Shown here: piece after piece, positions 7,861 through 62,285 of the stretch
Position numbering within the stretch: the first letter of the stretch is position 1
How the letters are laid out: the number at the start of each line of letters is the position of its first letter
NCBI GenBank assembly: GCA_963762115.1
Contig: CAVXJH010000003.1
Span: 128,001 to 192,000 of the forward strand
DNA from: Candidatus Babeliales bacterium
Lineage (GTDB): Bacteria > Babelota > Babeliae > Babelales > JANWKD01
Length of the DNA stretch: 64,000 bases
Direction of reading: 5' to 3'
Program-made: the position numbers and the translations under genes
Notes under the pieces: model-generated
What the model was told of the DNA's origin: nothing
What the model saw: the letters and a program-made list of their open reading frames with translations, nothing else
Database searches by the model: none

Positions 7861-9753
7861 ATGTTTTTTAAGAAAGCCTTAAAGTTGGTATTATGTACTC
7901 TGACACTTTTTACCACAATAACCATGCATCCTATGGGCCCTAATGAGCTCATAGATTTTCTCACTAAAAATGGTGATACTGTCAGTCTTAAGCGTAAAAT
8001 TGCTGAGCAATCAGGGACAATTTCACATTTATTGGGTGATGTTGATGATCAAGCGCAAGAAGCAATTCCCTTGCCCATTTCAACTGCAATGTTTAAAAGT
8101 ATAAAACCTTTGTTGAAAAAAAACTTTAAAAGTTCTCGATTGCCACAACCGGACACTCAATTATCTCAACAAAATTTACAACAACAATATACTCAGTTAT
8201 CTCAAAAAATTTTACAACAACAATCTGACAACACGTTATTAAAACTTATTCAAACAACTAACTATTTAGATTGCCCTCCTATTTTAGAAAAGTGTGCAGA
8301 TGTTCTTGCAGAAAGAACTTTTAAAAAAAATAGTAATCTTTATATTGTTAGCGCATTTGTATGGACCCAAAAAATGTTACAAAAATTACCCAATGAGCTT
8401 TTGGTCTTAATTCAACAAGCATATCTTAAAAAATCTTGTGATCTTTTTGAGCATGTTCATAATCCTATGCAAACAGAAATTAAGCCAATAACATTAACTG
8501 ATAATAACGGTCAAATTCGATCAGTTCATTATGATATTGATGGAAAAAACATTATTACTCAGATAGATGATGATACCATTTGTCATTGGGACCCTGAGAC
8601 ACAACAAAAAACAACGTTAATTAATAAAACACATTGGCCGTCTCTTGCCTCGAGAAATGAAAATAGAATACACAGCAATAAAATATATTTTGAGACAAGT
8701 GCTTATTCTCCAGATGGTTCAACCTATGCAATTGGTGGAAGCGATACAGTTTGTATTTGGGATCTTAATAAAAAAGAATTACTTAACCATAAAAAGCTTC
8801 CACGTCAATTTAGGACAATGTGTATGTCATATCATCCAGCTCTAACAAGACTTGCTGTTGGCAGTGGCCCTAGAGGAGAAGTTGTTATTTTTGATATAGA
8901 AACTATGGATGTTATTCATACTTTGAAAACTAATGGTATTTGGGTTAAAAATATAAAATATGCGCCGGATGGAAGAACTCTTGCAACAAGTAATATTGGA
9001 AGAAGTAATTCGGTAAAAATATGGGATCAAGAACTAGAAAATTGCCTAAAAACTATTGATGTTGGTGATGATAGTGATGATACTTTCGGACCTCCAGTTA
9101 TATGTTATTCACCTAATAATCAATTTTTGGCCTGCGCAGCAAGTAATAAAATTACTATTTACGAAACAACTAATAATTATGCATGTATTAAAGATATTAA
9201 AAGAGGTGAAAAACCTTTAAATAATGATAAGCAAATTAACTTAATTCAATATACATCAGACGGAAAATATTTGATTGCTGGATTGCAAGATGGAACAATT
9301 GAGTTTCGGGAAACAAATAATTATACTTGCATAAAAACACTTTCATACGATCGACCAATCTGGTCTGTTGCTTTTAATAAGAATGGATCACATATGGCTA
9401 GCATTTCACCAGGAAAAGAATATCCTGAAAGCCGTCTTGTATTGTGGGATATTTCTAGTTTATTTCTTGAAAATATTTTTAAAGAATTAAATTTTGAAGA
9501 ATTATTATTGATAACTAAAGTTGCACTGGCAAAAAAGAACAGTACTAAACTTGAAGTTTGCCCTCTTCATACTAATGAACTTGATGCAACAACAGGAATA
9601 AAAATTTCAGATATTTATGCGAATATACCAAGTCAACTTAAAGAAAAATTAGAACCATATATTAGATTGAATAGATCATGCAAATGTACTTTTTTGCCTA
9701 TTAAAGTTCCTGGGACCCCAAAAACTACGGAAAGAAATAATTATGATTTTTAA
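7861..9753 (+). CDS. secreted Skp1/BTB-like + F-box-like + WD40 repeat protein, copy 1
   Basis: Signal peptide; Skp1-like IAEQSGTISHLL..IPLP..LLKLIQTTNYLDCPPILEKCADVLA; LQKLPNELL; WD repeats (YSPDG..IWD). Confidence 0.85.
   Translation: MFFKKALKLVLCTLTLFTTITMHPMGPNELIDFLTKNGDTVSLKRKIAEQSGTISHLLGDVDDQAQEAIPLPISTAMFKSIKPLLKKNFKSSRLPQPDTQLSQQNLQQQYTQLSQKILQQQSDNTLLKLIQTTNYLDCPPILEKCADVLAERTFKKNSNLYIVSAFVWTQKMLQKLPNELLVLIQQAYLKKSCDLFEHVHNPMQTEIKPITLTDNNGQIRSVHYDIDGKNIITQIDDDTICHWDPETQQKTTLINKTHWPSLASRNENRIHSNKIYFETSAYSPDGSTYAIGGSDTVCIWDLNKKELLNHKKLPRQFRTMCMSYHPALTRLAVGSGPRGEVVIFDIETMDVIHTLKTNGIWVKNIKYAPDGRTLATSNIGRSNSVKIWDQELENCLKTIDVGDDSDDTFGPPVICYSPNNQFLACAASNKITIYETTNNYACIKDIKRGEKPLNNDKQINLIQYTSDGKYLIAGLQDGTIEFRETNNYTCIKTLSYDRPIWSVAFNKNGSHMASISPGKEYPESRLVLWDISSLFLENIFKELNFEELLLITKVALAKKNSTKLEVCPLHTNELDATTGIKISDIYANIPSQLKEKLEPYIRLNRSCKCTFLPIKVPGTPKTTERNNYDF
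8155..8226 (+). repeat. 36-bp tandem in-frame repeat (TQLSQQNLQQQY/TQLSQKILQQQS); also present in copy 2
   Basis: actcaattatctcaacaaaatttacaacaacaatat / actcagttatctcaaaaaattttacaacaacaatct. Confidence 0.8.
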
Positions 9754-11617
9754 GAAAGCTTTAAAGTCTCTTTTATGTATTCTGACATTTTTTACGATAG
9801 TAACCATGCATTCAATGCAGCAACCAAATGATCCTAATGAGCTCATAGGTTTTCTCACTAAAAATGGTGATACTGTCAGTCTTAAGCGTAAAATTGCTGA
9901 ACAATCAGGGACAATTTCACATTTATTGGGTGATGTTGATGATCAAACGCAAGAAGTAATTCCCTTGCCCATCTCAACGGCAATGTTTAAAAGTATAAAA
10001 CCTTTGTTGAAAAAAAATTTTAAAGGTTCTCGATTGCCACAACCGGACACTCAATTATCTCAACAAAATTTACAACAACAATATACTCAGTTATCTCAAC
10101 AAATTTTACAACAACAATCTGATAATGCGTTATTAAAACTTATTCAAACAACCAACTATTTAGATTGTCCTCCTATTTTAGAAAAGTGTGCAGATGTTCT
10201 TGCAGTAAGAACTTTTTCAAAAAATAGTGATCTTTATATTGTTAGTGCATTTGTATGGACCAAAAAGATGTTACAAAAATTACCAAATGAGCTTTTGGCC
10301 TTAATTCAGCAGGCATATCTTAAGAAATCTTGTGATCTTTTTGAGCATGTTCATAATCCAATGCAAGCAGAAATTAAGCCAATAACATTAACTAATAATA
10401 ACGGTCAAATTCGATCAGTTCATTATGATATTGACGGAAAAAAAATTATTACTCAGATAGATGATGATACCGTTTGTTATTGGGACCGTGAGACACAACA
10501 AAAAACAACGTTAATTGATAAAACACATTGGCAGTCTCTTGCCTCGAGAAATGAAAATAGAATGCTCAGAGATAAAATGTATTTTGAGACAAGTGCTTAT
10601 TCTCCAGATGGTTCAACGTATGCAACTGGTGGAAGCGATACAGTTTGTATTTGGGATCTTAATAAAAAAGAATTACTCAACCATAAAAAGCTTTCATGGC
10701 AATTTAGGCCAAAGTGTATGTCATATCATCCAACATTAAAAAAGCTGGCTGTTGGCAGTGGTCGTAGAGGAGAAGTGGTTATTTTTGATATGGAAACTAT
10801 GGAAGTTGCTCATAGTTTGAAAACTAATGATATTTTGGTTAAAAATATAGAATATGCGCCGGATGGAAGAACTCTTGCAATAAGCACTATTGGAAATGGA
10901 AGCAATTCATTAAAAATATGGGATCTAGAACTAAAAAATTGCCTAAAAACTATTGATGTTGATTATGATACTTTCGTATCACCAATTATATGTTATTCAC
11001 CTAATAGTCAATTTTTGGCCTATGCATCAAGTAATAAAATTACTATTTACGAAACAACTAATAATTATGCATGTATTAAAGATATTAAAAGAGGTGAAAA
11101 ACCTTTAAATAATGATGAGGAGCAAATTAACTCAATTCAATATACATCAGACGGAAAATATTTGATTGGTGGATTGCAAGATGGAACAATTAAGTTTTGG
11201 GAAACAAGTAATTATACTTGTATAAAAACACTTTCATACGATCGACCAGTCTGGTCTGTTGCTTTTAATAAGAATGGATCACATATGGCTAGCATTTCAC
11301 TAGGCAAGAGATATCCTGAAAGTCATCTTGTGTTGTGGGATATTTCTAGTTTATTTCTTGAAAATATTTTTAAAGAATTAAATTTTGAAGAATTATTATT
11401 GATAACTAAAGTTGCCTTGGCAAAAAAGAATAATAGTAAGCTTGAAGTTTGTCCTCTTCATACTAATGAACTTGATGCAAAAGCAGGAATAAAAATTTCA
11501 GCTATTTATGCGAATATACCAAGTCAACTCAAAGAAAAATTAGAACCATATATTAGATTGAATAGATCATGCAAATGCACTTTTTTGCCTATTAAAGTTC
11601 CTGGGGAAAAAAAATAA
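9743..11617 (+). CDS. secreted Skp1/BTB-like + F-box-like + WD40 repeat protein, copy 2 (recent tandem paralog)
   Basis: Colinear and highly similar to 7861..9753. Confidence 0.85.
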   Translation: MIFKKALKSLLCILTFFTIVTMHSMQQPNDPNELIGFLTKNGDTVSLKRKIAEQSGTISHLLGDVDDQTQEVIPLPISTAMFKSIKPLLKKNFKGSRLPQPDTQLSQQNLQQQYTQLSQQILQQQSDNALLKLIQTTNYLDCPPILEKCADVLAVRTFSKNSDLYIVSAFVWTKKMLQKLPNELLALIQQAYLKKSCDLFEHVHNPMQAEIKPITLTNNNGQIRSVHYDIDGKKIITQIDDDTVCYWDRETQQKTTLIDKTHWQSLASRNENRMLRDKMYFETSAYSPDGSTYATGGSDTVCIWDLNKKELLNHKKLSWQFRPKCMSYHPTLKKLAVGSGRRGEVVIFDMETMEVAHSLKTNDILVKNIEYAPDGRTLAISTIGNGSNSLKIWDLELKNCLKTIDVDYDTFVSPIICYSPNSQFLAYASSNKITIYETTNNYACIKDIKRGEKPLNNDEEQINSIQYTSDGKYLIGGLQDGTIKFWETSNYTCIKTLSYDRPVWSVAFNKNGSHMASISLGKRYPESHLVLWDISSLFLENIFKELNFEELLLITKVALAKKNNSKLEVCPLHTNELDAKAGIKISAIYANIPSQLKEKLEPYIRLNRSCKCTFLPIKVPGEKK

Positions 11618-13612: not shown

Positions 13613-14440
13613 ATGAGAATAAACGTTCGTTGTTTTTCTATTATTTTTTTGTTGATTTTTACGGTGATTTTTTCTTGTACCGCCATGAATAAAAAAAGCC
13701 GACGAGAAAATGAAGGCAATCAAATTGTTCAAATTTTTAATCCTAAAAAATTGATGGATATTCTTGCTAAAGAAATTTATGATTGGCAAGATTATAGTGA
13801 TCAAGATGTTGGATTTGATGTATTGGAACAATTGCCAGATGATGTTGCTTTCCAAGTAGTAAAGCAGTATAAAGATAAAATTGATAATACTTTATTGCAT
13901 ATTCATGCATCGGGCGGAAGATGTGAGAATGTGAGGTATCTTATACGCATTGGCCTTAGTCCTTTGGAAGAAAATAGTAGAGGGCAAACGCCAATGATTT
14001 TTGCTGCACAATGCGGTCCTTTTGAACTATTTGAACTATTATTTTTACATGATAAAGATTATTATTTTGCTGAAAATAATAAATCTATGTTACATGAATT
14101 AACGCGACATTTAGTTGCCATGCCAAGGGTAGAAGCATTTAATTTTTATAGACAATATATTGCCGAAAAAAATCGCCGTTTTATTGATTTATTACATTTT
14201 CCTGCATTAAGGGGTGGAAATCTTAATTGTTTAAAATATTTATTGCAAAAAATTTATGAAGAAGGGGGAGTTCAGTTAATTAAAGAAATTGATTTTCGTG
14301 AATCTCTTTCGTATAAAATGGCGAGAGTTGGGCTTAACCGGAGTTTGGCATTATTCTTATCTTTTTACTCTGGTATTCCAAATGAAAATATTGTAGGTGA
14401 AGAAGATCGGGGTAGTAAACGAATGCCACTTTTAATATAG
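13613..14440 (+). CDS. secreted ankyrin-repeat protein (shorter paralog)
   Basis: Signal peptide; NTLLHIHA, GQTPMIFAA; paralog of the next gene. Confidence 0.8.
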   Translation: MRINVRCFSIIFLLIFTVIFSCTAMNKKSRRENEGNQIVQIFNPKKLMDILAKEIYDWQDYSDQDVGFDVLEQLPDDVAFQVVKQYKDKIDNTLLHIHASGGRCENVRYLIRIGLSPLEENSRGQTPMIFAAQCGPFELFELLFLHDKDYYFAENNKSMLHELTRHLVAMPRVEAFNFYRQYIAEKNRRFIDLLHFPALRGGNLNCLKYLLQKIYEEGGVQLIKEIDFRESLSYKMARVGLNRSLALFLSFYSGIPNENIVGEEDRGSKRMPLLI

Positions 14441-14483: not shown

Positions 14484-15833
14484 ATGAAAATGAAAGTTCG
14501 TTGTTTTTCTATTATTTTTTTTGTATCTATTTTTTCCATGAATTTTTCTTGTTTTTCGATGCATCAAGACAAAAAACAACGATCTGATCGTTCAGAAGTT
14601 GTTATATTTTTTAATCCAAAAAGATTAACTGAAATTTGCACTGAACAATACGGTAAAGATATTTATGATCAAAAATATGCTAAGAATCAAGAATTAGGTC
14701 TGGATTTCTTGTGCCAATTCCCAAATGTTGCATCATTTCATATTGCAAAACACAAGAATGCGGTGGGTGATACGTTATTGCATGTATATTCTTATTTAGG
14801 AAAACTTGAAGAAGTGCACTATCTTCATAGTATTGGTTGTGATGTAAAAGCGAAAAATAAAAAAGGTGAAACGCCCATTGTGCATGCAAGTTTTGCAAGC
14901 CATTTTGAGGTAATGAAATATTTGTTTGAAAATAAAGGTTATCAGCCTGAAGATTATATGAAGGTGGCAATTGGCTTTATGAGCATGCCAGATGAAAAAG
15001 CGGTAGATCTTTTTAAGCAACATTCGGGTAAAACGCGTTGGTGTGGCTTGGTTCATCATGCTGCGCAGGCCGGTGGAAATATTGGCTTTCTACGACATGT
15101 ATTGGAAGAACAAAAAATAAAGCCAAAGGAGACTAATTTTTTTACTAAAAAGATTTGGCAAAAAAGGACCCCCATTCATCTTGCTGCTGAAAATGGCCAT
15201 TTAGAGCATTTGAAATTATTAATTGACAATAAATATCCAATTGATGAAATTGATTATGAAGGATATTCACCTGCTTGCTATGCGGCATATAATGGTCACC
15301 TTGTATGCTTAGCAACATTGTTATCTTTTGATGCATCACTAAACGGTGCTAAAGAAGGCGTTGAAACAACTTTAACACTTTTGCATGGTGCAATATTAAA
15401 TAATCAAAAAGAAGTGATTCATTTTCTTCTTTCTAATGGAGCTAATGTAAATGCGGGAGATTATAATGGTGAGACGCCAATTTTTTATGCAGTTGTAGAA
15501 GGCAATCTTGAGACGGTGCAATTATTATTAGCACATAATGCCGATGTGACTGAATTCGGTTTTGATCTATTACAAGAAGCTTTAAATAATAAACATTTTC
15601 ATGTTGCTGAATTTTTACTTGAACAAAAAATTAGTAGTGTTAATGAGATAGAAGATGAAAAGTTGTTGGGAGCGCCTGAATCAATTTTGGCACGTATGAT
15701 TAAAATAAATGAGATTCAAAGTGTAGAATTTTTACTTTCAAAAGGTGCAGATGTTCATCATCCAAGTGTCAAAATAAACGATAATACAGTACCAGAAATT
15801 GTTGAACGCATAAAAAATGCTAGAAAATCTTAA
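14484..15833 (+). CDS. secreted ankyrin-repeat protein with N-terminal SOCS/BC-box-like motif
   Basis: GDTLLH, GETPIVHA, TPIHLAA, GETPIFYAV; PKRLTEIC...QFPN. Confidence 0.9.
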   Translation: MKMKVRCFSIIFFVSIFSMNFSCFSMHQDKKQRSDRSEVVIFFNPKRLTEICTEQYGKDIYDQKYAKNQELGLDFLCQFPNVASFHIAKHKNAVGDTLLHVYSYLGKLEEVHYLHSIGCDVKAKNKKGETPIVHASFASHFEVMKYLFENKGYQPEDYMKVAIGFMSMPDEKAVDLFKQHSGKTRWCGLVHHAAQAGGNIGFLRHVLEEQKIKPKETNFFTKKIWQKRTPIHLAAENGHLEHLKLLIDNKYPIDEIDYEGYSPACYAAYNGHLVCLATLLSFDASLNGAKEGVETTLTLLHGAILNNQKEVIHFLLSNGANVNAGDYNGETPIFYAVVEGNLETVQLLLAHNADVTEFGFDLLQEALNNKHFHVAEFLLEQKISSVNEIEDEKLLGAPESILARMIKINEIQSVEFLLSKGADVHHPSVKINDNTVPEIVERIKNARKS

Positions 15834-15850
15834 AATAGTTGAAAAATAGT

Positions 15851-16462
15851 ATGAAAAATATTTTATTATTTGCTTCAAAATCAGCTCCTCGTCGTGAATT
15901 ATTGCAAAAGACACAAATTCCTTTCACTATAATTGAACAGAATGCTGATGAATCGCAATGTGATTGGGCATTGCCTTTTCCACAATTATTAGCATCAATT
16001 GCATTGCATAAAATGCATCAGGTGATTTTGCCAGAAGGTAAAGAGGGAGAGCATTGTTTTGTGCTTACCGTTGACACAATGTTACAAGCTCAAGACGGTA
16101 CCATTTTGGGTAAACCATCGTGTAAAGAAGCTGCCATAAAGATGATTCAAGCATCTCGCGATGGCGGAGTTGTAGCTTCGGCATTTTGTTTGGATAAAAA
16201 AATATTCAACAATGGATCGTGGATTGTTGATCAACGCATACAAAAATATGTGAGTGCAAACTATATTTTAGATTTTCCTGATTCTTGGCTTGAAAAATAT
16301 TTTGAAGAATATCCGGAATATTTAAACATTGCTGGAGCATTGAACATTGAAGAGTATGGTATGCAATTTGTTAAAACAATTAATGGTTCCTATTCAACGG
16401 CAATTGGGTTGCCGCTGTATGAATTACGTGAGTCACTTGAATCACTCGATTTTTTTGATTGA
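15851..16462 (+). CDS. maf: Maf family nucleoside triphosphate pyrophosphatase, copy 1
   Basis: FASKSAPRRELL, VLTVDT, ILGKP, AGALNIE, GSYSTAIGLP. Confidence 0.9.
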   Translation: MKNILLFASKSAPRRELLQKTQIPFTIIEQNADESQCDWALPFPQLLASIALHKMHQVILPEGKEGEHCFVLTVDTMLQAQDGTILGKPSCKEAAIKMIQASRDGGVVASAFCLDKKIFNNGSWIVDQRIQKYVSANYILDFPDSWLEKYFEEYPEYLNIAGALNIEEYGMQFVKTINGSYSTAIGLPLYELRESLESLDFFD

Positions 16463-18076: not shown

Positions 18077-19128
18077 AGAAGTTCAAAATCTTTTTTGTTT
18101 TTTAGCTTAAGAATTTCTTTTTTAGTAAGAGTAATATATTTTTGTGTATTGGGAATGCCTGTTAGTCGTTCCCAATGATCGGTGTTTTCTGGATGATCAA
18201 AAAAACTACGATGATCTGTACCATCGTTGCATAATAATATGGTAGTATAAAGCCCTGAAAAAAGGCAAAAGAAACTACCACCTAGCATCATCCAGGCAGC
18301 GATACCGGTTGGCTGTGCTAGAGATATTGTTACACATCCTCCTACTCCCATGTAACAACAATTGAAAGGCACGCCATAACGAAGACATAAGCAAGACTTA
18401 AAAATTTTATTTGCCTTATCTCTTAATTTACCTTCTAGTTGATGAGAATCGTCTAGAAATAGAGTGCGAGTAGTATAATACCCTTGGATAATGGTAGCAC
18501 ATTTTTCATTATATTCTTCATCATCTAATGCCCTATTAAAATGTGCCTGTAGCCTTTCATTTAAATTTTCCGCATGTTCTTCACTATTTTCAAGATATTT
18601 TCTAAATTGTTTTTTTATATCACGTTTTAGTCCCATACCAGTTTCCCATAATGAATACTCTGGAATATCATTCCAATAAGTAACGCCCTTATTGGCATTA
18701 GAAGCCAATTTTCGCAAGGCAATACGTTCTTTAGGTGTTTTACATGAAGGCATTTTTGTTATGATGTGTACTGCATGATATAATGATATTTTGTTTTTTA
18801 ATTCACGTTGAGTTTTATTTGATAGATTAAGGTATGCTGCGGCATAGCTTAAAGGAAGAATTGTTGCTTTATCTTTGTCATCAATAAGTTTTTCAATTAT
18901 TTCTTCGTGCAATTCGATAGGTAAATTAGGAAAAAATAATAAAGGTCCTGTTGTTGATTCTTTTTTATTCTTGTGTGTGTTTAAAAATTGTTGTTTGAGT
19001 GGACTATCATCATCTAAATCTTTTGCTTCCATTGAAAAGCTATCATGAAATTGTATTAAGTTAAAAAAAAAGAAAGTGAGAGTAATTAATGATGTAGATA
19101 AGGAAAAGAAATTATTTTTCATGAGCAT
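18073..19128 (-). CDS. secreted F-box-like protein with Cys-rich two-TM C-terminus, copy 1
   Basis: Start MLMKNN inferred from the paralog; FPNLPIELHEEIIEKL; CLCLRY..CCY followed by hydrophobic helices. Confidence 0.7.
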   Translation of the reverse strand: MLMKNNFFSLSTSLITLTFFFFNLIQFHDSFSMEAKDLDDDSPLKQQFLNTHKNKKESTTGPLLFFPNLPIELHEEIIEKLIDDKDKATILPLSYAAAYLNLSNKTQRELKNKISLYHAVHIITKMPSCKTPKERIALRKLASNANKGVTYWNDIPEYSLWETGMGLKRDIKKQFRKYLENSEEHAENLNERLQAHFNRALDDEEYNEKCATIIQGYYTTRTLFLDDSHQLEGKLRDKANKIFKSCLCLRYGVPFNCCYMGVGGCVTISLAQPTGIAAWMMLGGSFFCLFSGLYTTILLCNDGTDHRSFFDHPENTDHWERLTGIPNTQKYITLTKKEILKLKNKKDFELL

Positions 19129-19375: not shown

Positions 19376-20430
19376 AGAAGTTCAAAATTTTTTTCGTTTT
19401 TTAGCTTAAGAATTTCTTTTTTAGTAAGAGTAATATATTTTTGTGTATTGGGAATGTTTGTTAGTTGTTCCCAATAATCTATGTTTACGGTGGGGTTATA
19501 ACCATAAAAAAATTCTTCTACGCTAAATAGTGTTGCTGTAATTAATGATGATATAATGCAAAAACAACTACCACACATAAGCAATGTGCCAACTATACCG
19601 GCTGGACCGGTTGGGCCTACGATACAGCATGTTGTTGTGATACCTCCTATTCCCATATAGCAACAATTGAGTGGTACGCAATAACGAAGACATAAGCAAG
19701 ACTTAAAAACTTTATTTGCTTTATCTCTTAATTTACTTTCTAGTTGATGCGAATCGTTTAGAAATAGAGCGCGAGTAGTATAATATCCTTTGATAATGTT
19801 AGTACATATTTCATTATATTCTTCATCCTCTAATGCTCTATTAAAATGTGCGTGTAGCCTTTCATTTAAATTTTCAGCATGCTTTTCACTATTTTCAAGA
19901 TATTTTCTAAATTGTTTTTTTATATCACGTTTTAGTCCTATACCAGTATTCCATAATGAATATTCTGGAATATCATTCCAATAAGTAATGCATTTGTTGG
20001 CACTAGAAGCAAATTTGCGCAATGCAATGCGTTCTTCTGGTGTTTTACATAAAGGCATTTTTGTTATGATATGCACTGCATGATATAATGCTATTTTGCT
20101 TTTTATTTCACGTTGGGTTTTATTTGATACATGAAGGTACGATGCGGCATAACCTAAAGGAAGGATTGTTGCTTTATCTTTGTCTTCAATAAGCATTTCA
20201 ATTATTTCTTCGTGTAATTCGGTAGGTAAATTGTGGAAAAATAATAAAGGTCCTGTTGATTCTTTTTTATGCTTGTGTGTGTTTAGATATTGTTGTTTGA
20301 GTGGACTATCATCATCTAAATCTTTTGCTTCCATCGAAAAGCTATCATGAAATTGTATTAAGCTAAAAAAAAAGAAGGTGAGAGTAATTAATCGTGTAGA
20401 TAAAGAAAAGAAATTATTTTTCATGAGCAT
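19372..20430 (-). CDS. secreted F-box-like two-TM protein, copy 2 (tandem paralog)
   Basis: Colinear with 18073..19128; FHNLPTELHEEIIEML. Confidence 0.7.
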   Translation of the reverse strand: MLMKNNFFSLSTRLITLTFFFFSLIQFHDSFSMEAKDLDDDSPLKQQYLNTHKHKKESTGPLLFFHNLPTELHEEIIEMLIEDKDKATILPLGYAASYLHVSNKTQREIKSKIALYHAVHIITKMPLCKTPEERIALRKFASSANKCITYWNDIPEYSLWNTGIGLKRDIKKQFRKYLENSEKHAENLNERLHAHFNRALEDEEYNEICTNIIKGYYTTRALFLNDSHQLESKLRDKANKVFKSCLCLRYCVPLNCCYMGIGGITTTCCIVGPTGPAGIVGTLLMCGSCFCIISSLITATLFSVEEFFYGYNPTVNIDYWEQLTNIPNTQKYITLTKKEILKLKNEKNFELL

Positions 20431-21421: not shown

Positions 21422-21817
21422 ATGAAAAATATAAGAAATTTTGTAATAACATGTTCATTATTAGTATCTTCGAGTTCATTCTTTCAAGTAATTGCGATGG
21501 AAAAACCAGAGTATGATGTAAAAAAAATTGAATTATTGCTTACGCCATGGGTAAAGAGAAAAGAGCTTGCGTCGTCTTATATGAATAAAGCAATACAATC
21601 AAACACTGTTCAAGAAGTTAGCGAGCTTATCCAAGATATTAGGGTAATAACTGTTTTTGATCCTGAAGATAAGACCGTAGATCTGCAAACAGGGCCGTTT
21701 CATGATTGTATTGGCTATAACGTATTTATGAGATGGCTTGATTTGGCAAATCCTCAAGAGACAAAAAAAGTGGTTGCAGATGCAGGAAAATCTTCTCGAT
21801 GGTGTAGCTTTCAATAA
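21422..21817 (+). CDS. secreted protein with C-terminal CaaX-like motif
   Basis: Signal peptide VIA-ME; ends KSSRWCSFQ*. Confidence 0.7.
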   Translation: MKNIRNFVITCSLLVSSSSFFQVIAMEKPEYDVKKIELLLTPWVKRKELASSYMNKAIQSNTVQEVSELIQDIRVITVFDPEDKTVDLQTGPFHDCIGYNVFMRWLDLANPQETKKVVADAGKSSRWCSFQ

Positions 21818-44157: not shown

Positions 44158-44305
44158 TTATTTTTAAAATTTCCTTCAAAATATTTTCAGGCAGAAATGG
44201 CTACAGGGAAGGGCTCGCCCTCTGTGTAATTCATTTTGACATTATTATCAGTTTATAATAATCTATTCACTAGTAATAAGTTTCATAATTGAAATGGGGT
44301 TTAGG

Positions 44306-47098
44306 ATGAGTTATAAAAGTCTTTTTTTTGTTATAGTTCTGATTTTTTTCTGTGAAGTGCAGGGTATGCAGCGCAGAGTTATTGGAAATCTCAAGGCATC
44401 AACAAGCCTTTTTTCTGGATTTTGCCAAAAATATAATCCTTTTCGGTCTCTGCATTGGAGTAATCTTAAGGGTACATCAGCTGTTTTTACTAGTGAAAAA
44501 CAACATTTATCACCGGTAAATGGTGCAGCCTTGAGTGAAGGTAATTGGATTGAAAATGTATATCAATTTGGTCCTGATACTGATGCCACCACGACAATGA
44601 CGCGCAGTCTTTTTAATAAATTGGGAAATGAATATATTAGGCCGACAGCTAATAAATCATTGCCGGGTGCCTCTCTTACGCCTGAAATTACAGGGGATAT
44701 TATGAGTGCTTTGGAGCATAAAAATCTTAATAATCCTGAAATAAGAAAAGACATTATTGATAAATGGTGTGCGACTCATAAGACCCTTTTTGATACAAAA
44801 GTCACCAAAGCAAAAATAGAAAGATTGCTTGATACTATTGATCGGGCAGCTCAAGAATGCGATTTTAATAATAAAGATGCTTTATATATGCCTTATATGG
44901 TGCAGGCTATTTTGTTGGGGCATTTATATAAAAAAAGTGATACTAAAAAAGATCTTGAAAGTTATATACATGCAATACAAGACAAACTGCCGAGCGCTTT
45001 AAAACAACCTTATGTGCAAAAAAAATCGTATGTTGATTCTATAAAAAGATTTATTTTTGGAGAAAAATTTAAGGAAGAAGCTAAATTGGCAACCGACCCA
45101 CTTGCAGAAATTCTTGATACACAATTTGAAAACACGGTATTGGATTATTTTAAGCAAAAATATTCATTGCCTTTTGTTGAACAAAAATCATATCCATTTG
45201 CTGAGAAGTCCCCAACGCCAAACTGCATGGAAGCCTCTATGCAAAATATTTTTAATACATTATTGTATGATTCTGAAAAAAATATGTTTGATTTTTCTCG
45301 ATTGCCACAAGGTTTGGTAATACATCCTGATTTAAAAAAATTTTACAATGCGCACGCTGTTGATGCGGTTAATGAATCAACGGTTGGACGGGCTTGGATG
45401 AATCTTATGTCAGGCAAAGATTTTTTGCGTTATAAAAAGGGCGATTATGATTTGAATCCTCGTGTTTCAAATTTTATAAAAGTTATACAATATTTTTTAA
45501 ATATTGATGGTGAATTAACCCTTGAAGAATTAGCAAAAAAACTTTCTGATCACAGGAGAGAAATACAATTTATAAAACACAATGATAAAGATAATAATAA
45601 TCAGATTGATATTCATGTGACCGATAAGATTAATAAAGGGAAAGAAATTATTAAGCTGCATTTGGATGCTGGGCATGCATGGATAGAAAAGCCGAATGAT
45701 AGAAAATTATTATGTGATAATATAATGTTTGATACTTTTGCAGTTCCTTTTTTACAAGAAAAATTTTCTGGTGATCCCCAAAAAAGTAGTAAGCTCGGTA
45801 TTTTACAATCATTGGTATATCCTCGTGAAAGGTGTAATGGTGTTGTTTCGGGATATCGGCCTACAGCAACAAGGATGATGCAAGCTCATTTTTCAAGGAA
45901 TCTACAGGATCTTTTAGAAATTGTTAATACGTTTTCTGAGATTCTTGATCATTTAGATGATGATGATTGTCGATTGTCGTCTGTAATTTTGCGTTTCAGT
46001 AAGCTATTGCAGAGAAATGATCGTGCCGATGGTTGTTATTTATTGAATAGATTAAGAGCAAAACCAATTAATAGGCATCTCATACATGTTGATTTTCCAG
46101 AAGCAGTAGTAGTTGCCGTTGAACAATCTTCTTTTGATAATGATGAAAATAATGCTCTTTTAGACCAGTGGTTACAAAATCTTAATTCTTATCCGGTATT
46201 TAAAATTATTGCATTTGAATCAATTTTAAAAAAATGTCCTGATGAGAATAATCTTTTATTGAAAAATTATATTATTGATTTTGTTGAAAACAATAAAAAT
46301 ACAGTAAGTATGTGTGTAGAAGGGATTTTTAAATCAATAGAATCATATCCAGTAGATTTAATAGTGAAAATAAATAAATTATTGCCCGAATATAGCCAAG
46401 AAATAATTTTTGCGCAACGACCTTTTTGGGTTTCCACTGAAAGAATTGTTCCTCAGATTGTTAAAAATCCTGAGGCCCTTGAAAAACTTTTACAAATTAA
46501 ATTTCCTGAAGCTTTATATGTATCTGCTATGAACTTAATACCATTATTTGTTTCGGGTGCAAATCTGGATATAAATGAGCGGATTGATGCATTGTTAAAA
46601 GATCTTTCAGGGTATCCTGATCTTAAGCTTGACGTGCTGCGTAAGGGTATAAAACATTGTTCAAAAGAAGAAGATGCTGAAATGATCGAAAGACATATTT
46701 TTGACTTTTTATTACCAAGAAAGTCTGAAGTAAAGAAAAAAGAGATTTCAAAAGAAGAATATGATTTGTTATACAAACAATTTATTCAATATTCAGCAGG
46801 GTATCGAGTTCGAAATTGTAAGCAACCATCTGAGAGAATTATTCGTAATGAAAATTTCCTGAGTATTTTGCAAAGCGGTTCATCATTAGTGCGTTATCTT
46901 GTAGAGTATCCAGATAAAATTTTTCACAATATACAATTATTAATTGACTTAGAAGTAGATATTAACGAAAAAGATCGATCAGGATTAACATTCTTGGATT
47001 TTATTAAAAAACATCGTCGCTATCAATATAGTGATAAAATAATAGCTCAAATTCAAGAAGTTTTGGATAGGCATAATTCAGGTTCGGTTGAATCTTGA
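44306..47098 (+). CDS. large secreted protein; central Cys/His-motif domain and C-terminal ankyrin-like repeat
   Basis: Signal VQG-MQ; PNCMEASMQNIFNTLLYD, WMNLMS, LDAGHA; VDINEKDRSGLTFLD. Confidence 0.75.
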   Translation: MSYKSLFFVIVLIFFCEVQGMQRRVIGNLKASTSLFSGFCQKYNPFRSLHWSNLKGTSAVFTSEKQHLSPVNGAALSEGNWIENVYQFGPDTDATTTMTRSLFNKLGNEYIRPTANKSLPGASLTPEITGDIMSALEHKNLNNPEIRKDIIDKWCATHKTLFDTKVTKAKIERLLDTIDRAAQECDFNNKDALYMPYMVQAILLGHLYKKSDTKKDLESYIHAIQDKLPSALKQPYVQKKSYVDSIKRFIFGEKFKEEAKLATDPLAEILDTQFENTVLDYFKQKYSLPFVEQKSYPFAEKSPTPNCMEASMQNIFNTLLYDSEKNMFDFSRLPQGLVIHPDLKKFYNAHAVDAVNESTVGRAWMNLMSGKDFLRYKKGDYDLNPRVSNFIKVIQYFLNIDGELTLEELAKKLSDHRREIQFIKHNDKDNNNQIDIHVTDKINKGKEIIKLHLDAGHAWIEKPNDRKLLCDNIMFDTFAVPFLQEKFSGDPQKSSKLGILQSLVYPRERCNGVVSGYRPTATRMMQAHFSRNLQDLLEIVNTFSEILDHLDDDDCRLSSVILRFSKLLQRNDRADGCYLLNRLRAKPINRHLIHVDFPEAVVVAVEQSSFDNDENNALLDQWLQNLNSYPVFKIIAFESILKKCPDENNLLLKNYIIDFVENNKNTVSMCVEGIFKSIESYPVDLIVKINKLLPEYSQEIIFAQRPFWVSTERIVPQIVKNPEALEKLLQIKFPEALYVSAMNLIPLFVSGANLDINERIDALLKDLSGYPDLKLDVLRKGIKHCSKEEDAEMIERHIFDFLLPRKSEVKKKEISKEEYDLLYKQFIQYSAGYRVRNCKQPSERIIRNENFLSILQSGSSLVRYLVEYPDKIFHNIQLLIDLEVDINEKDRSGLTFLDFIKKHRRYQYSDKIIAQIQEVLDRHNSGSVES

Positions 47099-47174: not shown

Positions 47175-47501
47175 ATGATGCTTAAAAAATCTTATTTTTT
47201 CGTTTTGCTTATTACTGTTTTTTCGAAAAATGTTTTTGCTATGGAAGCAATACTTGGCAAAGTAGTGCCAGAATCTGAACTAAAAAATCTACGAGAATGG
47301 AATGAAAAAGCAGTAAAGAGAGGTGCACTTGTTGCGTATAAATCGGGACAACGCTTTTATTATGCTGCTTTACATGAAAAATTAATAGATAATAGTTATA
47401 CAGTCATTATATTACAAAAAACTGATGAGCGCGGGGTGCAATCAGCTCATGGCAGAAAAGCAGAACGTGAAGATTTACGTATTGTTGCTCAAGAAAAATA
47501 A
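47175..47501 (+). CDS. small secreted hypothetical protein
   Basis: RBS AAGGAG; signal peptide VFA-ME. Confidence 0.7.
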   Translation: MMLKKSYFFVLLITVFSKNVFAMEAILGKVVPESELKNLREWNEKAVKRGALVAYKSGQRFYYAALHEKLIDNSYTVIILQKTDERGVQSAHGRKAEREDLRIVAQEK

Positions 47502-50774: not shown

Positions 50775-51335
50775 ATGTACAAATTATTGTTAGTTCTTAT
50801 GTTGTTACAAGGTGTCGTGGCATATGCCATGGAAAAAGATTTAGGTTTAATTGGTTTAGATGCTAGCAAGTCAAATTTTTCTGATCAGCACAATAAAAAA
50901 TTTAGAAAAAGATTAGAAGAAATTCAAAGTAATTCTGTAGTACTTCTGTCGCATAATGAATTTGGTGATGGTGAATTAACACGATTTACAAAAAGTGAAT
51001 ATGCTCAAATTAAATGGATGTTTGATAGAAGGCGATCTGTACTTAGATTACATGAACAGGATGAAAATGGGTTGTTAATATATTATAAGCACTTTGCACA
51101 AATTGTTTTGAATGATGTTTGCCTTGAAGCAAAGGCATGGTCGCTTTATAGAAAAGAAGAAAAAATATACAAAAAAAATTATAATGAATATTTAAGAGAG
51201 ATTGGCAAATTAGCTATATTAGTTGCTGATGTTGAGTCTCGTGCGCCAGAAGTAAATAGGACCAATACTATGGATGAAAATTGTAAGTCATTCGTTGTTG
51301 GGCTTGAAAGTCTTTTTGGTGAAGTTTTTCATTGA
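50775..51335 (+). CDS. secreted hypothetical protein
   Basis: Signal peptide AYA-ME. Confidence 0.7.
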   Translation: MYKLLLVLMLLQGVVAYAMEKDLGLIGLDASKSNFSDQHNKKFRKRLEEIQSNSVVLLSHNEFGDGELTRFTKSEYAQIKWMFDRRRSVLRLHEQDENGLLIYYKHFAQIVLNDVCLEAKAWSLYRKEEKIYKKNYNEYLREIGKLAILVADVESRAPEVNRTNTMDENCKSFVVGLESLFGEVFH

Positions 51336-52815: not shown

Positions 52816-53838
52816 ATGATACGAATTCAAAAAAATATTCTTTTAGTGCTTATGCTTTTTTGCGTAAGTTCTTCTTTTTCAATGGATTTACTCAAAAATT
52901 GTTATGGCGGTGTCACAAAAGGGGTAAATTGGACCTTTGATACTTATTCTTCAGGATTAGAATCAGTTGAAGATGTATTGCATTTGCCAAAAACAACTCT
53001 TCAAGCAGGGATTCCTGTTGTTACAGCGGCATCATTAGCGTGGTATTTTACTCGTTCAAATGATGATATTAAGAAATTTATTGAACATGTTGATACGGCA
53101 AAAAAAATTACTTTAGGTTGTGGTGCTTTATATAGTGCCCGCTTTTTAAAGCGCTGGTGGGATTTTTCAAGTTTGGAAAAAGAGTTGTTGGATGCTTCAT
53201 CTCCTGAAACGGCGCATTATAAAAAATTTAGATTTGCAACCTGGGCAAAAAGCATGTGGCCTCTTGCATCGAATATTATTGGTGCAGCAAATGCAGTCCG
53301 GGCAAAACTGAAACATGATGTTACGACCTGTGATGATCAAGTTTATTTGCACGGTAATAAAATTGATGGTAAAAAACCTATTACGGCAAAAATGATAAAA
53401 GATTCAATCAATACTGAGTTAGAACAATTAAAAAAAGATCTTGGTTATGTTGGTGCGTGTACTGATGCGCCGGAAGTTTTAGTTAGTCTATTACAACAAC
53501 ATCCAAAAGCTGCTGTTTCCGATACTGTTTCTTCGTTTATTAATATTGCCGATAATATTAATATTTTGCAAAAAAGTGATTTATATTTTATTAATAGCAT
53601 AAAAAAAGCTTCAAAAGCAAATTGGTTTAAACGGTTTGTTTATTTCCCCGGCTACCAATTTTGGAATTTTCGATTTGCTCCCTATTATAAACGAGCCACA
53701 AATTTATATTGTGATTTGTTGAAAAATTATATTCGTTTGAGTGCGCTAAAATCAGTTGCTGATCAGATGGAAGCATGGGAAGAAAAACCAAAAACTCCTG
53801 GGCATACGGTGAACGTTAATTTTAAGAAGGTTAATTAA
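52816..53838 (+). CDS. secreted/membrane hypothetical protein
   Basis: RBS GGAGG; signal SFS-MD; one hydrophobic helix. Confidence 0.7.
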   Translation: MIRIQKNILLVLMLFCVSSSFSMDLLKNCYGGVTKGVNWTFDTYSSGLESVEDVLHLPKTTLQAGIPVVTAASLAWYFTRSNDDIKKFIEHVDTAKKITLGCGALYSARFLKRWWDFSSLEKELLDASSPETAHYKKFRFATWAKSMWPLASNIIGAANAVRAKLKHDVTTCDDQVYLHGNKIDGKKPITAKMIKDSINTELEQLKKDLGYVGACTDAPEVLVSLLQQHPKAAVSDTVSSFINIADNINILQKSDLYFINSIKKASKANWFKRFVYFPGYQFWNFRFAPYYKRATNLYCDLLKNYIRLSALKSVADQMEAWEEKPKTPGHTVNVNFKKVN

Positions 53839-56169: not shown

Positions 56170-57210
56170 ATGAATTATTTAAAAAAAATAGTTGTTATCT
56201 TTTTGATGATGAATTCTGCCAATTTTTATTGTTATGCACAAAAATCTAGCGATTGGACATGGTCACTTAAGAAAGAATTTACGGCAACAGAAATTCTTGA
56301 GAATACAAATCGTAAACAAATTATATTTTGTAAAAACGATATTTCTTTGTTTTCGCAATTAATTTTTTATTGGAATGCATTTCGCCCTGAAAAGGGCTAT
56401 TTTTCATTTCATGCTCAAGTATTGGATGAAAAAAATAAATGGCATGATTGGCATACCATGATTAACTGGGGGAAAGATATTCAAAAATCTTTTTTTAGTG
56501 AAGGCGCTTTGGGTACCAAATATTGTCATGTTCGTCTTGAAATGCCACCTAAAAAATTAGCAAAAGGAGTACGGATTAAAGTTGTTGCTCATGATGGTGC
56601 TAATTTATCATCATTAAGAGCACTTGGGATTAATGTTGCGAATTTAGCAGCATTTAGTGAAGAATTTAATCATTCAATTGGACTTTTGCCTTCGGTAATG
56701 ATTAGCGGTATTCCAAAACAATCTCAAATGGTTTTGGATCATCCCAAGGCTGATGTTATGTGCTCTCCGACATCCTGCAGTATGCTTATGGGATATTTAA
56801 AAAAACAACCATCAAATACACTAGAATTTGCACTCGGTGTTTATGATTACGGCTTAAATTCGTATGGTAGTTGGCCATTTAATATTGCTCATGCTTTTGA
56901 GCATTGTGAAGGCGAAGTTTTTTTTAAAGTTATGCGATTGCCATCTTTTCTTGAGTTGCATAGCATGTTGCAAAAATCAATTCCCGTTGTGGTGAGTGTA
57001 CGAGGAAAATTGCAGGGTGCCCCGAAGGAATATAACAATGGCCATTTGTTATTAGTTATCGGTTGGGATCAACAAAAGCAAAAAGTGCTTTGTCATGATC
57101 CTGCTTTTGATCAAAGTGAAAAGGTTTATGCAGAATATGATATAAAATCATTTTGCACAGCTTGGGGCCGTTCTCGTCATTTGGCCTATGTTGCTGAACC
57201 AAATTATTAG
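56170..57210 (+). CDS. peptidase C39-like protein
   Basis: SQM..CSPTSCSM, YGSWPFN, GHLLLVIG, HDPA. Confidence 0.85.
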   Translation: MNYLKKIVVIFLMMNSANFYCYAQKSSDWTWSLKKEFTATEILENTNRKQIIFCKNDISLFSQLIFYWNAFRPEKGYFSFHAQVLDEKNKWHDWHTMINWGKDIQKSFFSEGALGTKYCHVRLEMPPKKLAKGVRIKVVAHDGANLSSLRALGINVANLAAFSEEFNHSIGLLPSVMISGIPKQSQMVLDHPKADVMCSPTSCSMLMGYLKKQPSNTLEFALGVYDYGLNSYGSWPFNIAHAFEHCEGEVFFKVMRLPSFLELHSMLQKSIPVVVSVRGKLQGAPKEYNNGHLLLVIGWDQQKQKVLCHDPAFDQSEKVYAEYDIKSFCTAWGRSRHLAYVAEPNY

Positions 57211-57406
57211 AAAATAGTTAAACTTTTCTTAATGTAATCCCCTCTTTTTTTATCTGATACGCTGAGAATACAATTATTAAAATAATCTTACTTAACACAA
57301 ATAAATAATTTATTAATAACTCTATTGACTAACTGAATTAAAAATTGTTACAGTATCAATGAAATAATGAGCTTGATACGATAATTTTTTTTTAGGGGGA
57401 AGGGAC

Positions 57407-58537
57407 ATGAATTATTCAAAATTATTATTATTTTTTTGTATACCGACATTTTTGAGTGCTGCATCAACGATGAATGAATTAACAAAAGTCTTTCATCATC
57501 AAAGTCCGCTTGGAGATAAATTGGTATGTTATTTTACGCAAGATCCAATTTGTAACCGGCTGCCAACAAAGAATGGGCAGAAGGAATCTGAAAAAGCTGT
57601 TTTGCAATTTTTTATGCCGATGACCATTGAAGGCAGTGAGGCCCAAGCAATGATCAAGAAAATTCAAGCAGCAAATCATTCTTTTTATACCGTTGCATTT
57701 GCACAAGTAACCAAACCAATGAAGGGTATTAGTCTCATAATTACCTATGATCCCAAAAAAATTACCTGCAACTACGAATCGTTTGATGCCATAAATACTC
57801 ATAAAGGATTAATATTTTCATTTCATAATAAAGAAATTTTACAGCAGTTAAAATTGAAAACTGATGGATTGTTGCAATATGCTTGTAACAATCCATCAAC
57901 AAAACCCCGTATCATGCTTGATTATGGGCATGGGGGGTCAGATGATGGTAAAGTCGGGTGTTTCAATGTAAAAGAAAAAGATATTAATTTAGAAGTGGGA
58001 ATACGCGTTTCAAGGTTGTTATCTCATAAAGGATATGAGGTGTTTTCCACACGTAAGACAGATTGTTTTGTTGCGCTTGATGCAAGAACAAAATATGCTA
58101 ATCAAAAAAATGTTGATCTTTTTGTTTCCATTCATGCAAATGCCGCTCAAAAATCTGAAATACAGGGGATTGAAACCTATTGGATGAATTATGATTTATT
58201 TAAACCGGGTATGAGTCTCTCAGATCCTACAGAAGTGACGATGTTGAATGCATTGAAACATTCACGGAGTACTCAAAGTCAAAAGCTTGCTGCGCTTATT
58301 CACGAACACGTGGTAGCGGCGACAAAAAAAGTACATAATACTATTGATAGAAAAGTAAAACAGTCAGTAGCACAAGTTTTACTAGGCTCTGAAATGCCGT
58401 CTGCGCTTATAGAAATTGGCTTTTTGTCAAATCCAGAAGAAACAAAATTGTTAACAGATCATCATTATCAACAAATAGTTGCTCAAGGAATTGCTTCTGG
58501 TATTATTGCTTATCTAACTATGCGTAAAATTGCCTAA
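57407..58537 (+). CDS. N-acetylmuramoyl-L-alanine amidase (Amidase_3)
   Basis: LDYGHGG, EKDINL, FVSIHAN, PSALIEIGFLSN. Confidence 0.93.
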   Translation: MNYSKLLLFFCIPTFLSAASTMNELTKVFHHQSPLGDKLVCYFTQDPICNRLPTKNGQKESEKAVLQFFMPMTIEGSEAQAMIKKIQAANHSFYTVAFAQVTKPMKGISLIITYDPKKITCNYESFDAINTHKGLIFSFHNKEILQQLKLKTDGLLQYACNNPSTKPRIMLDYGHGGSDDGKVGCFNVKEKDINLEVGIRVSRLLSHKGYEVFSTRKTDCFVALDARTKYANQKNVDLFVSIHANAAQKSEIQGIETYWMNYDLFKPGMSLSDPTEVTMLNALKHSRSTQSQKLAALIHEHVVAATKKVHNTIDRKVKQSVAQVLLGSEMPSALIEIGFLSNPEETKLLTDHHYQQIVAQGIASGIIAYLTMRKIA

Positions 58538-60602: not shown

Positions 60603-60611
60603 TGTTAATTG

Positions 60612-62285
60612 TTATGTAGCTTGTTCTGAAGTTATATAAGATAATATTTTCTCTTTATTTCTTTTTATAAGGCGTAGAATTTTCTCTTTGGTTTCTTGAT
60701 TTTCAAGTGATTCATAAGCATTCTTTCTTTCATGTGCACTTAAGAGCTTATCAACCATTTCCATAGAAGGTTTTTTTGCTCCTAAATCTATTAAATGCTT
60801 AACAACTTTAGGGAGACTGAATCCTATTGCCATTATGAGTAGTGTTCTATTTATTTTGTCAATTGCATTAATGTTACACCCATGTTCTTTGCAATGACTA
60901 ATAATTTTATTCCACTTTTTCATATATATTTTTTGTTGTTTTTTGGCATTTTCAAAATTTTGAGAATTTTCAGAAATTTTCTTATGAAACATATCATACA
61001 TATAATATAATGGGTGAGATTGGCCCCTTGGAGTATCAATGAGGGATGATTCTAAGCATGTAGTGCCGGCTTTAAGGAGTAATTTTACTCCTTTTGCATT
61101 GCATTCTAAAATTGTGTGAATTAATGGGGTAATGCCATCAAATTCTTTACTATTCAGTAATTTTTCTTTGTTTTCTGGATCATAATGACTGACATGGTTA
61201 AGTAAAATTCGAATTGCTTTATTATGATTTTTCTTTGTTGCACAAAGCAATCCTTTTGCAAGTTCACTATCATTTAGTTCAGTACCTAAAAATAATTGCA
61301 TGGCGATTATATTATTATTTTCTACGGCAAGTTCTATAAGGTCTATGGAACTTTCATTAACATATTTTTTCATTTCTTTGGTTAATAAATCTGGCAGAAG
61401 AGTATTATAACCAAATTTGATTGCGTATAAGATAGGAAGAGGAATTCTGTTCTTATCTATTAGCATTAAGTTTGCACCGGCGTTTAATAATGCCCGTGCG
61501 CATTGAGGTCTATTTTGCTGAAGATGATATAAAAAAGGTTCTTCTCTCCAAATATCTTGCATATTAATCTTATAACCTTTGTCCAATAATTCAGCGATTT
61601 TTTCGGGTGTTTGTGCATAATATAAATCCGTTTTATTGGTTAGATTGTAAGATATTTGTGTTTTTGGTTGTATAAATAGATTGTCTTGACAGAGGCCCAA
61701 TTTGTTCAAAATTTGAATGAGATTTTCATGCATTTGTTCAATATTATCTTCTTCGATTCGATGAAATTCAACACGGTTTGTAGGGTTTATTTTATTATGC
61801 ATGTTAACTAATGATCCAATGAGATTTTCATATTTTTTTAAAGATTGATAATTGTGAGTAGTAAGTGACAATGCTTGTGCTGCGGCCCGGCAATTACCTT
61901 CTCGTATAAAATATTCAATTGTTGATATATCTATTTTATTTTTAACATCTATTGTTGCACCATGTTTAACTAACGTAGGAATTTGTTCAGCGTTGGCAAA
62001 AAAAATTGGTGTACGACCTACAGAATCAACGGGTTTGTTAATATATTCTTCGGTTAATTCTGTTGGTAGTGCAGGAAAAATTGCATCAAGATTTGGTTGT
62101 TGAGGTAGCAAATAAAATGCAACACGTGCAGCAGTATCTTTGAGTGATCGTGGTTGGAATTTTTCTTGGGGTATAACAATAGCTTTTGTTTTTTTATCAT
62201 TATTTTCGTTATTTTCAATAGTTTCCATGCTTATAAGTGGGCAGGCATAAAAAAGCATTAAAAGTGTTAATAATTGTAATTTCAT
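60612..62285 (-). CDS. secreted ankyrin-repeat protein with N-terminal SOCS-box-like motif
   Basis: Signal LIS-ME; PRSLKDTAARV...LPTELTEEYI; GRTPIFFA, GITPLIHT, INAIDKINRTLL. Confidence 0.85.
   Translation of the reverse strand: MKLQLLTLLMLFYACPLISMETIENNENNDKKTKAIVIPQEKFQPRSLKDTAARVAFYLLPQQPNLDAIFPALPTELTEEYINKPVDSVGRTPIFFANAEQIPTLVKHGATIDVKNKIDISTIEYFIREGNCRAAAQALSLTTHNYQSLKKYENLIGSLVNMHNKINPTNRVEFHRIEEDNIEQMHENLIQILNKLGLCQDNLFIQPKTQISYNLTNKTDLYYAQTPEKIAELLDKGYKINMQDIWREEPFLYHLQQNRPQCARALLNAGANLMLIDKNRIPLPILYAIKFGYNTLLPDLLTKEMKKYVNESSIDLIELAVENNNIIAMQLFLGTELNDSELAKGLLCATKKNHNKAIRILLNHVSHYDPENKEKLLNSKEFDGITPLIHTILECNAKGVKLLLKAGTTCLESSLIDTPRGQSHPLYYMYDMFHKKISENSQNFENAKKQQKIYMKKWNKIISHCKEHGCNINAIDKINRTLLIMAIGFSLPKVVKHLIDLGAKKPSMEMVDKLLSAHERKNAYESLENQETKEKILRLIKRNKEKILSYITSEQAT

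Follow-up and report, generated by a model that had tools for sequence, protein, structure and literature searches.

Methionine-Glutamate Starts behind Predicted Signal Peptides in a Babeliales Genome

Introduction

The window analyzed here, a 64,000-nucleotide stretch of a 1.53-Mb genome (C3:128001-192000), encodes a series of proteins in which a predicted signal peptide ends immediately before a methionine. This raises the question of why Met should stand at +1, the first residue after the cut, and why the residue behind it (+2) is so often Glu. The original prediction held that these proteins share an export signature that would give effectors a eukaryote-like N-terminus, an interpretation that, taken as a whole, is partly supported by the present analysis. 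The genome is treated as that of a Babeliales (Babelota/TM6) protist parasite; close homologs come from ‘Candidatus Dependentiae’, ‘Babeliaceae’ and ‘Babeliales’ bacteria and from one ‘candidate division TM6’ genome, and the genome contains TLC-family translocase matches.

Within the same order, signal peptides are described on 79/126 ankyrin proteins of Babela and on 78% of those of Chromulinavorax, with type II or Sec export proposed for these effectors (PMC4378268, PMC6561590); the word methionine is absent from the main texts of both papers, and no mention of the +1/+2 signature was found in them. Searches of openly accessible papers, main texts only, revealed no rule of Met or Met-Glu after signal peptidase. 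The signature thus appears to be undescribed so far and to join the ‘+1 rules’ that follow signal peptidase I cleavage.

Results

Met at +1 throughout the genome

Genome-wide calling yielded 1417 open reading frames (ORFs), from which a heuristic selected 588 soluble signal-peptide-like proteins, a set that includes false positives (membrane anchors, lipoproteins, Rossmann N-termini). Cut sites were placed by a blind rule, which sees only the residues before the cut and not +1, and by a weight matrix over residues -13 to -1, trained on Met sites and complemented by a Met-anchored fallback rule. Under the blind rule, Met stands at +1 in 190/588 proteins, compared with 9-31 at offsets from -8 to +8 and a Met background of 1.8%, while Gln occupies +1 in only 27/588. 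The matrix assigns 197 of 484 well-scored proteins to the Met class, and a relaxed rule flags 236/584, that is, 236 of all 1417 ORFs. This whole-genome check extends the signature beyond the window and confirms it as genuine, genome-wide and strong.

The hallmarks of Sec export and signal peptidase I cleavage are present: a basic n-region, a hydrophobic core, a small residue at -1 and a -3 site. The -1 residue is Ala, Gly, Ser or Cys at 235 of the 321 Met-anchored sites, compared with 22% for Met residues in mature parts. Leu at -3 is frequent (35%) and unusual, but it is common to non-Met proteins too.

Free-living control samples run through the same script, small as they are (30, 17 and 7 proteins), contain Met at +1 in 0/54 cases overall: 0/30 in Fusobacterium (27% GC), 0/17 in a Rhizobium chromid and 0/7 in a Hymenobacter plasmid, from which the script recovers Gln at +1 in 4/7, as the Bacteroidetes Q-rule predicts. 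On the Fusobacterium result, an artefact of AT-richness was rejected. Expansion of a single family was also rejected, since 206 of the 234 Met-bearing families are singletons. One identical Met-class N-terminus occurs at two contig ends (C3:585999 and C6:584669), perhaps through assembly overlap, and an ESM Atlas search with one Met-class N-terminus returned no usable match.

The second residue is predominantly Glu

Among the 197 Met-class proteins, +2 is Glu in 109, Gln in 26, Asp in 16, Asn in 14 and His in 10. With cut sites placed by the matrix, Glu, Asp, Asn or Gln stands at +2 in 165/197 of the Met class and in 80/287 of the other exported proteins; the corresponding values are 10/197 and 93/287 for small residues, and 5 and 70 for bulky hydrophobic ones. 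The difference persists when each family is represented by one protein (134/162 vs 72/261, p=2e-29). Glu accounts for ∼55-56% of +2 residues compared with 13.5% at +3 to +6 of the same proteins, a four-fold increase. Lys is reduced five-fold (3% vs 15%), and basic residues are avoided. In the non-exported genes of the genome, the commonest second residue is Lys (94/575), with Glu in 28/575.

A Kozak-type DNA signal for host ribosomes was considered and rejected. The Ser codons at -1 show no purine bias (11/38 AGY, compared with 32% genome-wide), which indicates that the signal acts at the amino-acid level; avoidance of Ala, Gly and Val at +2 also disfavors a Kozak-type reading.

The Met class is rich in eukaryote-like domains

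Domain content was assessed by a Pfam scan of 30 window proteins and 284 signal-like proteins (about half of the genome; 113 Met, 171 other), together with whole-genome profile searches for ankyrin, WD40 and Skp1. In a hand-built cargo table (four signal genes lacking an ATG corrected, four missed signals added, three signal-less proteins dropped), 40/56 ankyrin, WD40, Skp1 and J-domain proteins belong to the Met class compared with 1/18 cleaved envelope proteins (p=7e-7), so the link first proposed between Met and eukaryote-like-domain proteins, as opposed to envelope proteins, holds. Among signal-bearing proteins, Met is found in 25/41 ankyrin, 7/7 WD40, 3/3 further Skp1-like and 5/5 J-domain proteins. 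The envelope set comprises TolB-like, autotransporter, amidase, C39, NlpC/P60, secretin and other proteins, with an OmpH-like member labelled by eye. Five Met calls with Pfam matches proved false on inspection. The window holds tandem Skp1-like and WD40 proteins (7861-11617), and the six Skp1_POZ matches of the genome are all Met class. K[KR]x[KR] motifs, counted over the whole mature chain, occur in 94/191 Met-class and 96/275 other proteins (p=0.002).

J-domain and Skp1-like domains work with cytosolic partners. In the J-domain proteins, Met-Glu is retained although the spacer to the J domain varies in length. Those with a signal peptide and a Met-Glu start (L027:13547-14407 and L036:733-4540) are, judged from their sequence, candidates for recruiting host Hsp70.

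Many cytoplasmic-type enzymes also carry a signal peptide or anchor, including threonine aldolase, methyltransferases, HAD hydrolases and DOT1-like, HDAC-like and LigD-N proteins. Four genes encode a signal peptide without an ATG start (in-frame Val) and appear signal-less when read from Met; the internal Met can thus mislead gene callers. A signal-bearing protein with an NCA2 domain, a eukaryotic mitochondrial family (window 34989-36578, E 2e-19), lacks the +1 Met.

The sites in the window

All 13 sites with Met at the cleavage point are present in the sequence (Table 1), and the matrix and fallback rule class 13/13 as Met. Ten of the 13 have Glu, Asp, Asn or Gln at +2, in agreement with the count of NatB-type starts made at the outset. 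The positions first assigned to the sites mark initiator ATGs and not the +1 Met codons, and in one case (44306) a second ATG, the ORF opening at 44294. The cut of the 7861 protein is ambiguous between TIT↓MHPMG (Met codon 7924) and MHP↓MG (7933), the latter matching MHS↓MQ of its paralog; a database search with this protein among representative sequences retrieved generic WD40 proteins. The four exported proteins originally cited as lacking Met do lack it, but for the 34686 and C39 (56170) proteins the matrix cut lies a few residues from the proposed site.

Table 1. Signal peptide junctions of the window, with contrasting proteins and the candidate acetyltransferase (window coordinates unless a contig is named; arrows mark predicted cuts)
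Feature	Coordinates	Strand	Protein or remark
Signal peptide + Met (codon 7924 or 7933)	7861..7935	+	630-aa Skp1-like + WD40 protein
Signal peptide + Met-Gln (MHS↓MQ)	9743..9817	+	624-aa Skp1-like + WD40 protein, paralog of 7861 protein
Signal peptide + Met-Asn (CTA↓MN)	13613..13687	+	Ankyrin protein
Signal peptide + Met-His (CFS↓MH)	14484..14561	+	Ankyrin protein
Signal peptide + Met-Glu (SFS↓ME)	19030..19128	-	351-aa protein, without firm Pfam match
Signal peptide + Met-Glu (SFS↓ME)	20332..20430	-	Paralog of 19128 protein; weak RGS match (E 0.003)
Signal peptide + Met-Glu (VIA↓ME)	21422..21499	+	131-aa protein, no Pfam match
Signal peptide + Met-His (GQG↓MH)	23971..24042	+	404-aa protein, no Pfam match
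Signal peptide + Met-Gln (VQG↓MQ)	44294..44368	+	934-aa protein; 44306 is second ATG
Signal peptide + Met-Glu (VFA↓ME)	47175..47243	+	108-aa protein, no Pfam match
Signal peptide + Met-Glu (AYA↓ME)	50775..50831	+	186-aa protein, no Pfam match
Signal peptide + Met-Asp (SFS↓MD)	52816..52884	+	340-aa protein, no Pfam match
Signal peptide + Met-Glu (LIS↓ME)	62226..62285	-	Ankyrin protein
Contrast set: exported C39-like peptidase (56170) + Amidase_3	56170..58537	+	Both without +1 Met
Membrane-anchored RimI-like GNAT	C6:47313-47894 (L195:114-692)		One of seven GNAT matches

Elsewhere in the window, a PD-(D/E)XK nuclease and Toprim + DUF3987 primase-like genes (651-7451) suggest an integrated mobile element, and two alike genes of ∼205 aa (15839-16462 and 17468-18076) are presumably Maf-like.

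Relatives and other lineages

The phylum sample comprises 121 genomes, all within one order. For relatives, +1 was read from 80-100 kb samples in which about one Met site is expected by chance; families f4, f8, f10, f14, f16, f17 and f19 lie outside these samples. Met at +1 is found in 3/29 proteins of f1, 11/37 of f2, 7/38 and 10/41 of f3, 12/32 of f18, 6/35 of f9 and 7/51 of f6. In f5, f6 and f15, the residue most often seen at +1 is Ser; under the blind rule it reaches 11/26, 7/31 and 10/51 in relatives G069, G008 and G040, and the matrix gives a weaker signal (7/37, 3/28 and 31/126, respectively). A ‘NatA-type’ rule based on Ser at +1, alongside the Met rule, is a lead. Ser and Ala at +1 are common across many bacteria. 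In Chlamydiae loci, none of six ankyrin proteins has a signal, and six signal-like proteins include one doubtful Met. Among plasmids, no further lineage of protist symbionts suited to the comparison was found.

A conserved type II-like locus

A locus at C6:205033-213979 (L194) encodes two GspD-like secretins of 920-940 aa that flank PilM-like genes, with a GspC-like gene. The matches of the two GspD-like proteins and the GspC-like protein fall short of the curated cut-offs; the genome also encodes T2SSE ATPases, which score above cut-off. At least two secretin matches are found in 71/71 genomes, and a third secretin, shorter than these, occurs in several families. Met-class proteins probably leave through this type II-like system. 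An uncharacterised delivery route, one of the options raised in the original prediction, is not required given this machinery.

Discussion

A host-type N-terminus as the favored explanation

We favor, at a probability of roughly one in two, the explanation that selection keeps the Met-Glu start as an N-terminus compatible with the host and able to evade turnover by N-degron pathways. In eukaryotes, methionine aminopeptidase (MetAP) removes Met before small residues, Met followed by a hydrophobic residue is a degron, and exposed Asp, Glu, Asn or Gln is arginylated (PMC8037982), while Met-Glu, Met-Asp, Met-Asn and Met-Gln are the substrates of NatB, which is ribosome-tethered (PMC9692967). As read from the sequence, the proposed path would begin with a tripartite signal peptide, a ribosome-binding site at the first ATG and Met-Glu, -Gln, -Asp or -Asn behind the -3/-1 site. 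Some ∼200-240 proteins are predicted to undergo Sec export and cleavage by ordinary signal peptidase I, and may then leave the periplasm through the type II-like system with its conserved pair of secretins, or in vesicles. In the host cytosol, Met ahead of a large polar residue would resist MetAP, a Met-Glu start would present no Met-hydrophobic degron, and Met would mask an arginylatable Glu, Asp, Gln or Asn, so that the protein would be spared from the proteasome of the protist host. For some genes, Met may be an old start codon in front of which a signal peptide was added, with selection then shaping +2. Because NatB is tethered to the ribosome, it is doubtful that a protein imported into the host would be acetylated; stability can do without this modification.

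Several observations weigh against selection for a host-compatible N-terminus. Every cut site is a heuristic prediction, as are export and destination, and the destination cannot be read from the domains of the 89/113 scanned Met-class proteins without a Pfam match. BamA, which resides in the outer membrane, is cut at LFA↓MQ by prediction and is the sole Met case among the 18 envelope proteins. Met is missing from 16 of the genome's signal-bearing ankyrin proteins, several of them starting with Lys, Glu, Asn, Gln, His or Leu, which are destabilising by the proposed rule. The +2 residue of threonine aldolase shows no constraint, and its Met is the ancestral start. Motifs resembling nuclear localization signals show no significant enrichment in the first 45 residues for three of four patterns. 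The proposal that the starts form a NatB class stands insofar as +2 fits and MetAP-cleavable and Met-hydrophobic starts are avoided, but the enrichment is mostly Glu, with Asp, Asn and Gln only 1.2-1.5-fold above their level at +3 to +6. Among the relatives, Met is scarce in f5 (1/31), f15 (0/26), f11 (2/29), f12 (0/17), f13 (2/25) and f7 (0/7); set against about one site expected per sample, the counts from f1 to f18 indicate that only part of the order follows the rule strongly. In pooled relatives, Glu, Asp, Asn or Gln follows at only 42/76 Met sites. One expanded family of G048 has Met-Val or Met-Ile, and the 44 signal-bearing ankyrin proteins of G040 start mostly with Ser, Ala or Gln and rarely with Met.

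Alternative explanations

The Met could instead be a former or alternative start. Signal peptides, drawn from AT-rich upstream DNA or copied from a neighbor's signal cassette, would have been added before existing genes, whose former initiator Met would now mark the junction and would sometimes still serve to make a cytoplasmic form. Threonine aldolase (L037:5614-6711), a possible dual-start gene, has its +1 Met where signal-less homologs begin, and homologs keep this Met, even at +3 in several (118/120 among the matches listed); J-domain and methyltransferase cases also start near the natural start. Adjacent genes with unrelated mature parts have signal-coding DNA in common in 45 pairs, roughly half of which belong to a single tandem array, and an eleven-copy tandem family at C6:349268-361607 shares its signal-coding DNA with two unrelated neighbors, an instance of signal-cassette reuse. 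Against this origin as a general account, Shine-Dalgarno-like words precede the first ATG in 179/263 genes and the internal ATG in 5/263, which speaks against the internal Met as a mere alternative start, the ancestral start of threonine aldolase notwithstanding. Native starts in this genome are followed by Lys, Leu, Asn, Ile or Ser (Glu 5%), compared with 55% Glu at +2 here; the lack of purine preference in -1 Ser codons and the avoidance of Ala, Gly and Val at +2 point the same way. In addition, +1 varies among Ala, Met and Phe within one G040 family, and a paralog pair of this genome has Met-Glu in one copy and Ser-Asp in the other. Signal addition before old starts would supply Met but cannot supply 55% Glu, and we regard it as possible though unlikely.

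Two further alternatives concern the bacterium's own machinery. If Met-Glu served as a sorting tag in the periplasm, one that the type II-like machine or a chaperone recognises when choosing host cargo, the cargo split, the sharp two-residue consensus and the conserved two-secretin locus would follow naturally. The sorting signal originally suggested is, as a strict rule, contradicted by the tagged BamA and the 16 untagged ankyrin proteins, and Met is lacking in families that have the same pair of secretins. PMC10653852 rules out a role in sorting for the Q-rule. These points leave a sorting tag rather improbable. It also sits poorly with the way in which known type II systems work, recognising folded surfaces and not linear N-termini. 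A preference for Met-Glu after the cut in the lineage's signal peptidase I, or in one of its two copies, has in its favor the presence of two tandem genes for the enzyme (C3:457976-459744, L042). The copies, however, are close, recent, lineage-level duplicates, single-copy genomes such as G001 are also Met-rich, and 287 predicted substrates have another +1 residue behind the same -3/-1 pattern, a comparison that is partly circular as the matrix was trained on Met sites. Such a preference would also leave the cargo split unexplained, and we consider it highly improbable. A dedicated signal peptidase was rejected, as many genomes have one copy and the duplicates are recent. The enzyme is mostly ∼400 aa long in the other Babeliales branch and ∼290 aa here. 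An extra Met aminopeptidase was likewise rejected: the genome has only one gene of MetAP size plus a longer M24 gene, and both lack a signal.

The bacterium might also cap Met-Glu (or Ser) itself, through a periplasm-facing, anchored RimI-like GNAT that would act after cleavage, like glutaminyl cyclase in the Q-rule. The candidate (Table 1) has rimI as its best NCBIfam match (E 7.5e-15, below cut-off). A basic N-terminus and one membrane helix are present in 20/20 aligned homologs, and the greater positive charge N-terminal of the anchor in 32/33 homologs predicts an outward-facing domain. The gene is a single-copy core gene of one Babeliales branch, found in 68/68 genomes of 13 families and 0/33 of 8 families, and all sampled Met-rich and Ser-rich families carry it. 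Summed over samples, Met at +1 occurs in 57/320 proteins of carriers (this genome excluded) compared with 4/78 of non-carriers. Yet carriers and non-carriers are the two sides of one branch of the tree, so the association represents one event only, and the carrier families f5 and f15 have almost no Met. In relatives the gene is part of an rpsF-rpsR-truA block, a setting suited to a ribosomal S18 acetylase; an Acatn-type acetyl-CoA transporter (PF13000) was found in 0/61 genomes searched; and the structural model (pLDDT 86) matches RimI, Ard1, NAA60, NatC and small-molecule enzymes equally (Z 17-18, root-mean-square deviation ∼2). N-terminal anchors are common on cytoplasmic-type enzymes of this genome, and the analogous Plasmodium endoplasmic reticulum (ER) acetyltransferase candidate has been discounted (PMC10038149). 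Self-capping is thus doubtful, and the anchored GNAT as modifying enzyme is a lead. We give similarly little weight to the wider scenario in which Babeliales would make eukaryotic N-termini outright, with Met-Glu (Ser in sister families) exposed and GNAT-capped before type II export, so that hundreds of effectors would reach the host already disguised as NatB or NatA products. GNAT capping, if true, would parallel in a bacterium the acetylation that malaria parasites' exported proteins undergo, and it would require an acetyl supply to the periplasm.

Comparison with known systems

The closest parallel is the Bacteroidetes Q-rule, likewise a lineage-wide +1 bias after signal peptidase I that is read as N-terminal protection (PMC5837995, PMC10653852). 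There, most substrates expose Gln, which a periplasmic glutaminyl cyclase cyclises, no matter where they end up. The Babeliales signature differs in being Met-Glu, in covering a third to two-fifths of substrates and in its bias toward eukaryote-like cargo, and its modifying enzyme is a candidate GNAT only. Given the cargo split, the independence of destination that marks the Q-rule does not extend to it.

Selection for a host-compatible N-terminus would also link the signature to eukaryotic NatB and N-degron biology, with which it shares Met followed by Glu, Asp, Asn or Gln and the avoidance of both MetAP cleavage and the Met-hydrophobic degron (PMC9692967, PMC8037982). NatB acts on the initiator Met at the ribosome, whereas here an internal Met would be exposed by proteolysis in another cell. 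The PEXEL consensus of Plasmodium has an acidic or amide residue at +2. Exported Plasmodium proteins resemble the present case in that parasite effectors receive a new N-terminus by cleavage along the secretory route; they differ in using the eukaryotic ER and a dedicated protease, plasmepsin V, in a +1 residue other than Met and in N-acetylation that has been measured (PMC10038149).

Implications

Babelota are widespread intracellular parasites of protists that lack genetic tools and whose secreted proteins are mostly orphans; Met-Glu behind a signal peptide would tag likely host-directed effectors among them. If true, this would add to the Q-rule a second instance in which selection acts on the residue that signal peptidase exposes, here apparently tuned to the protein-turnover rules of the host, and it would make testable whether Sec-exported effectors must obey the host N-end rule.

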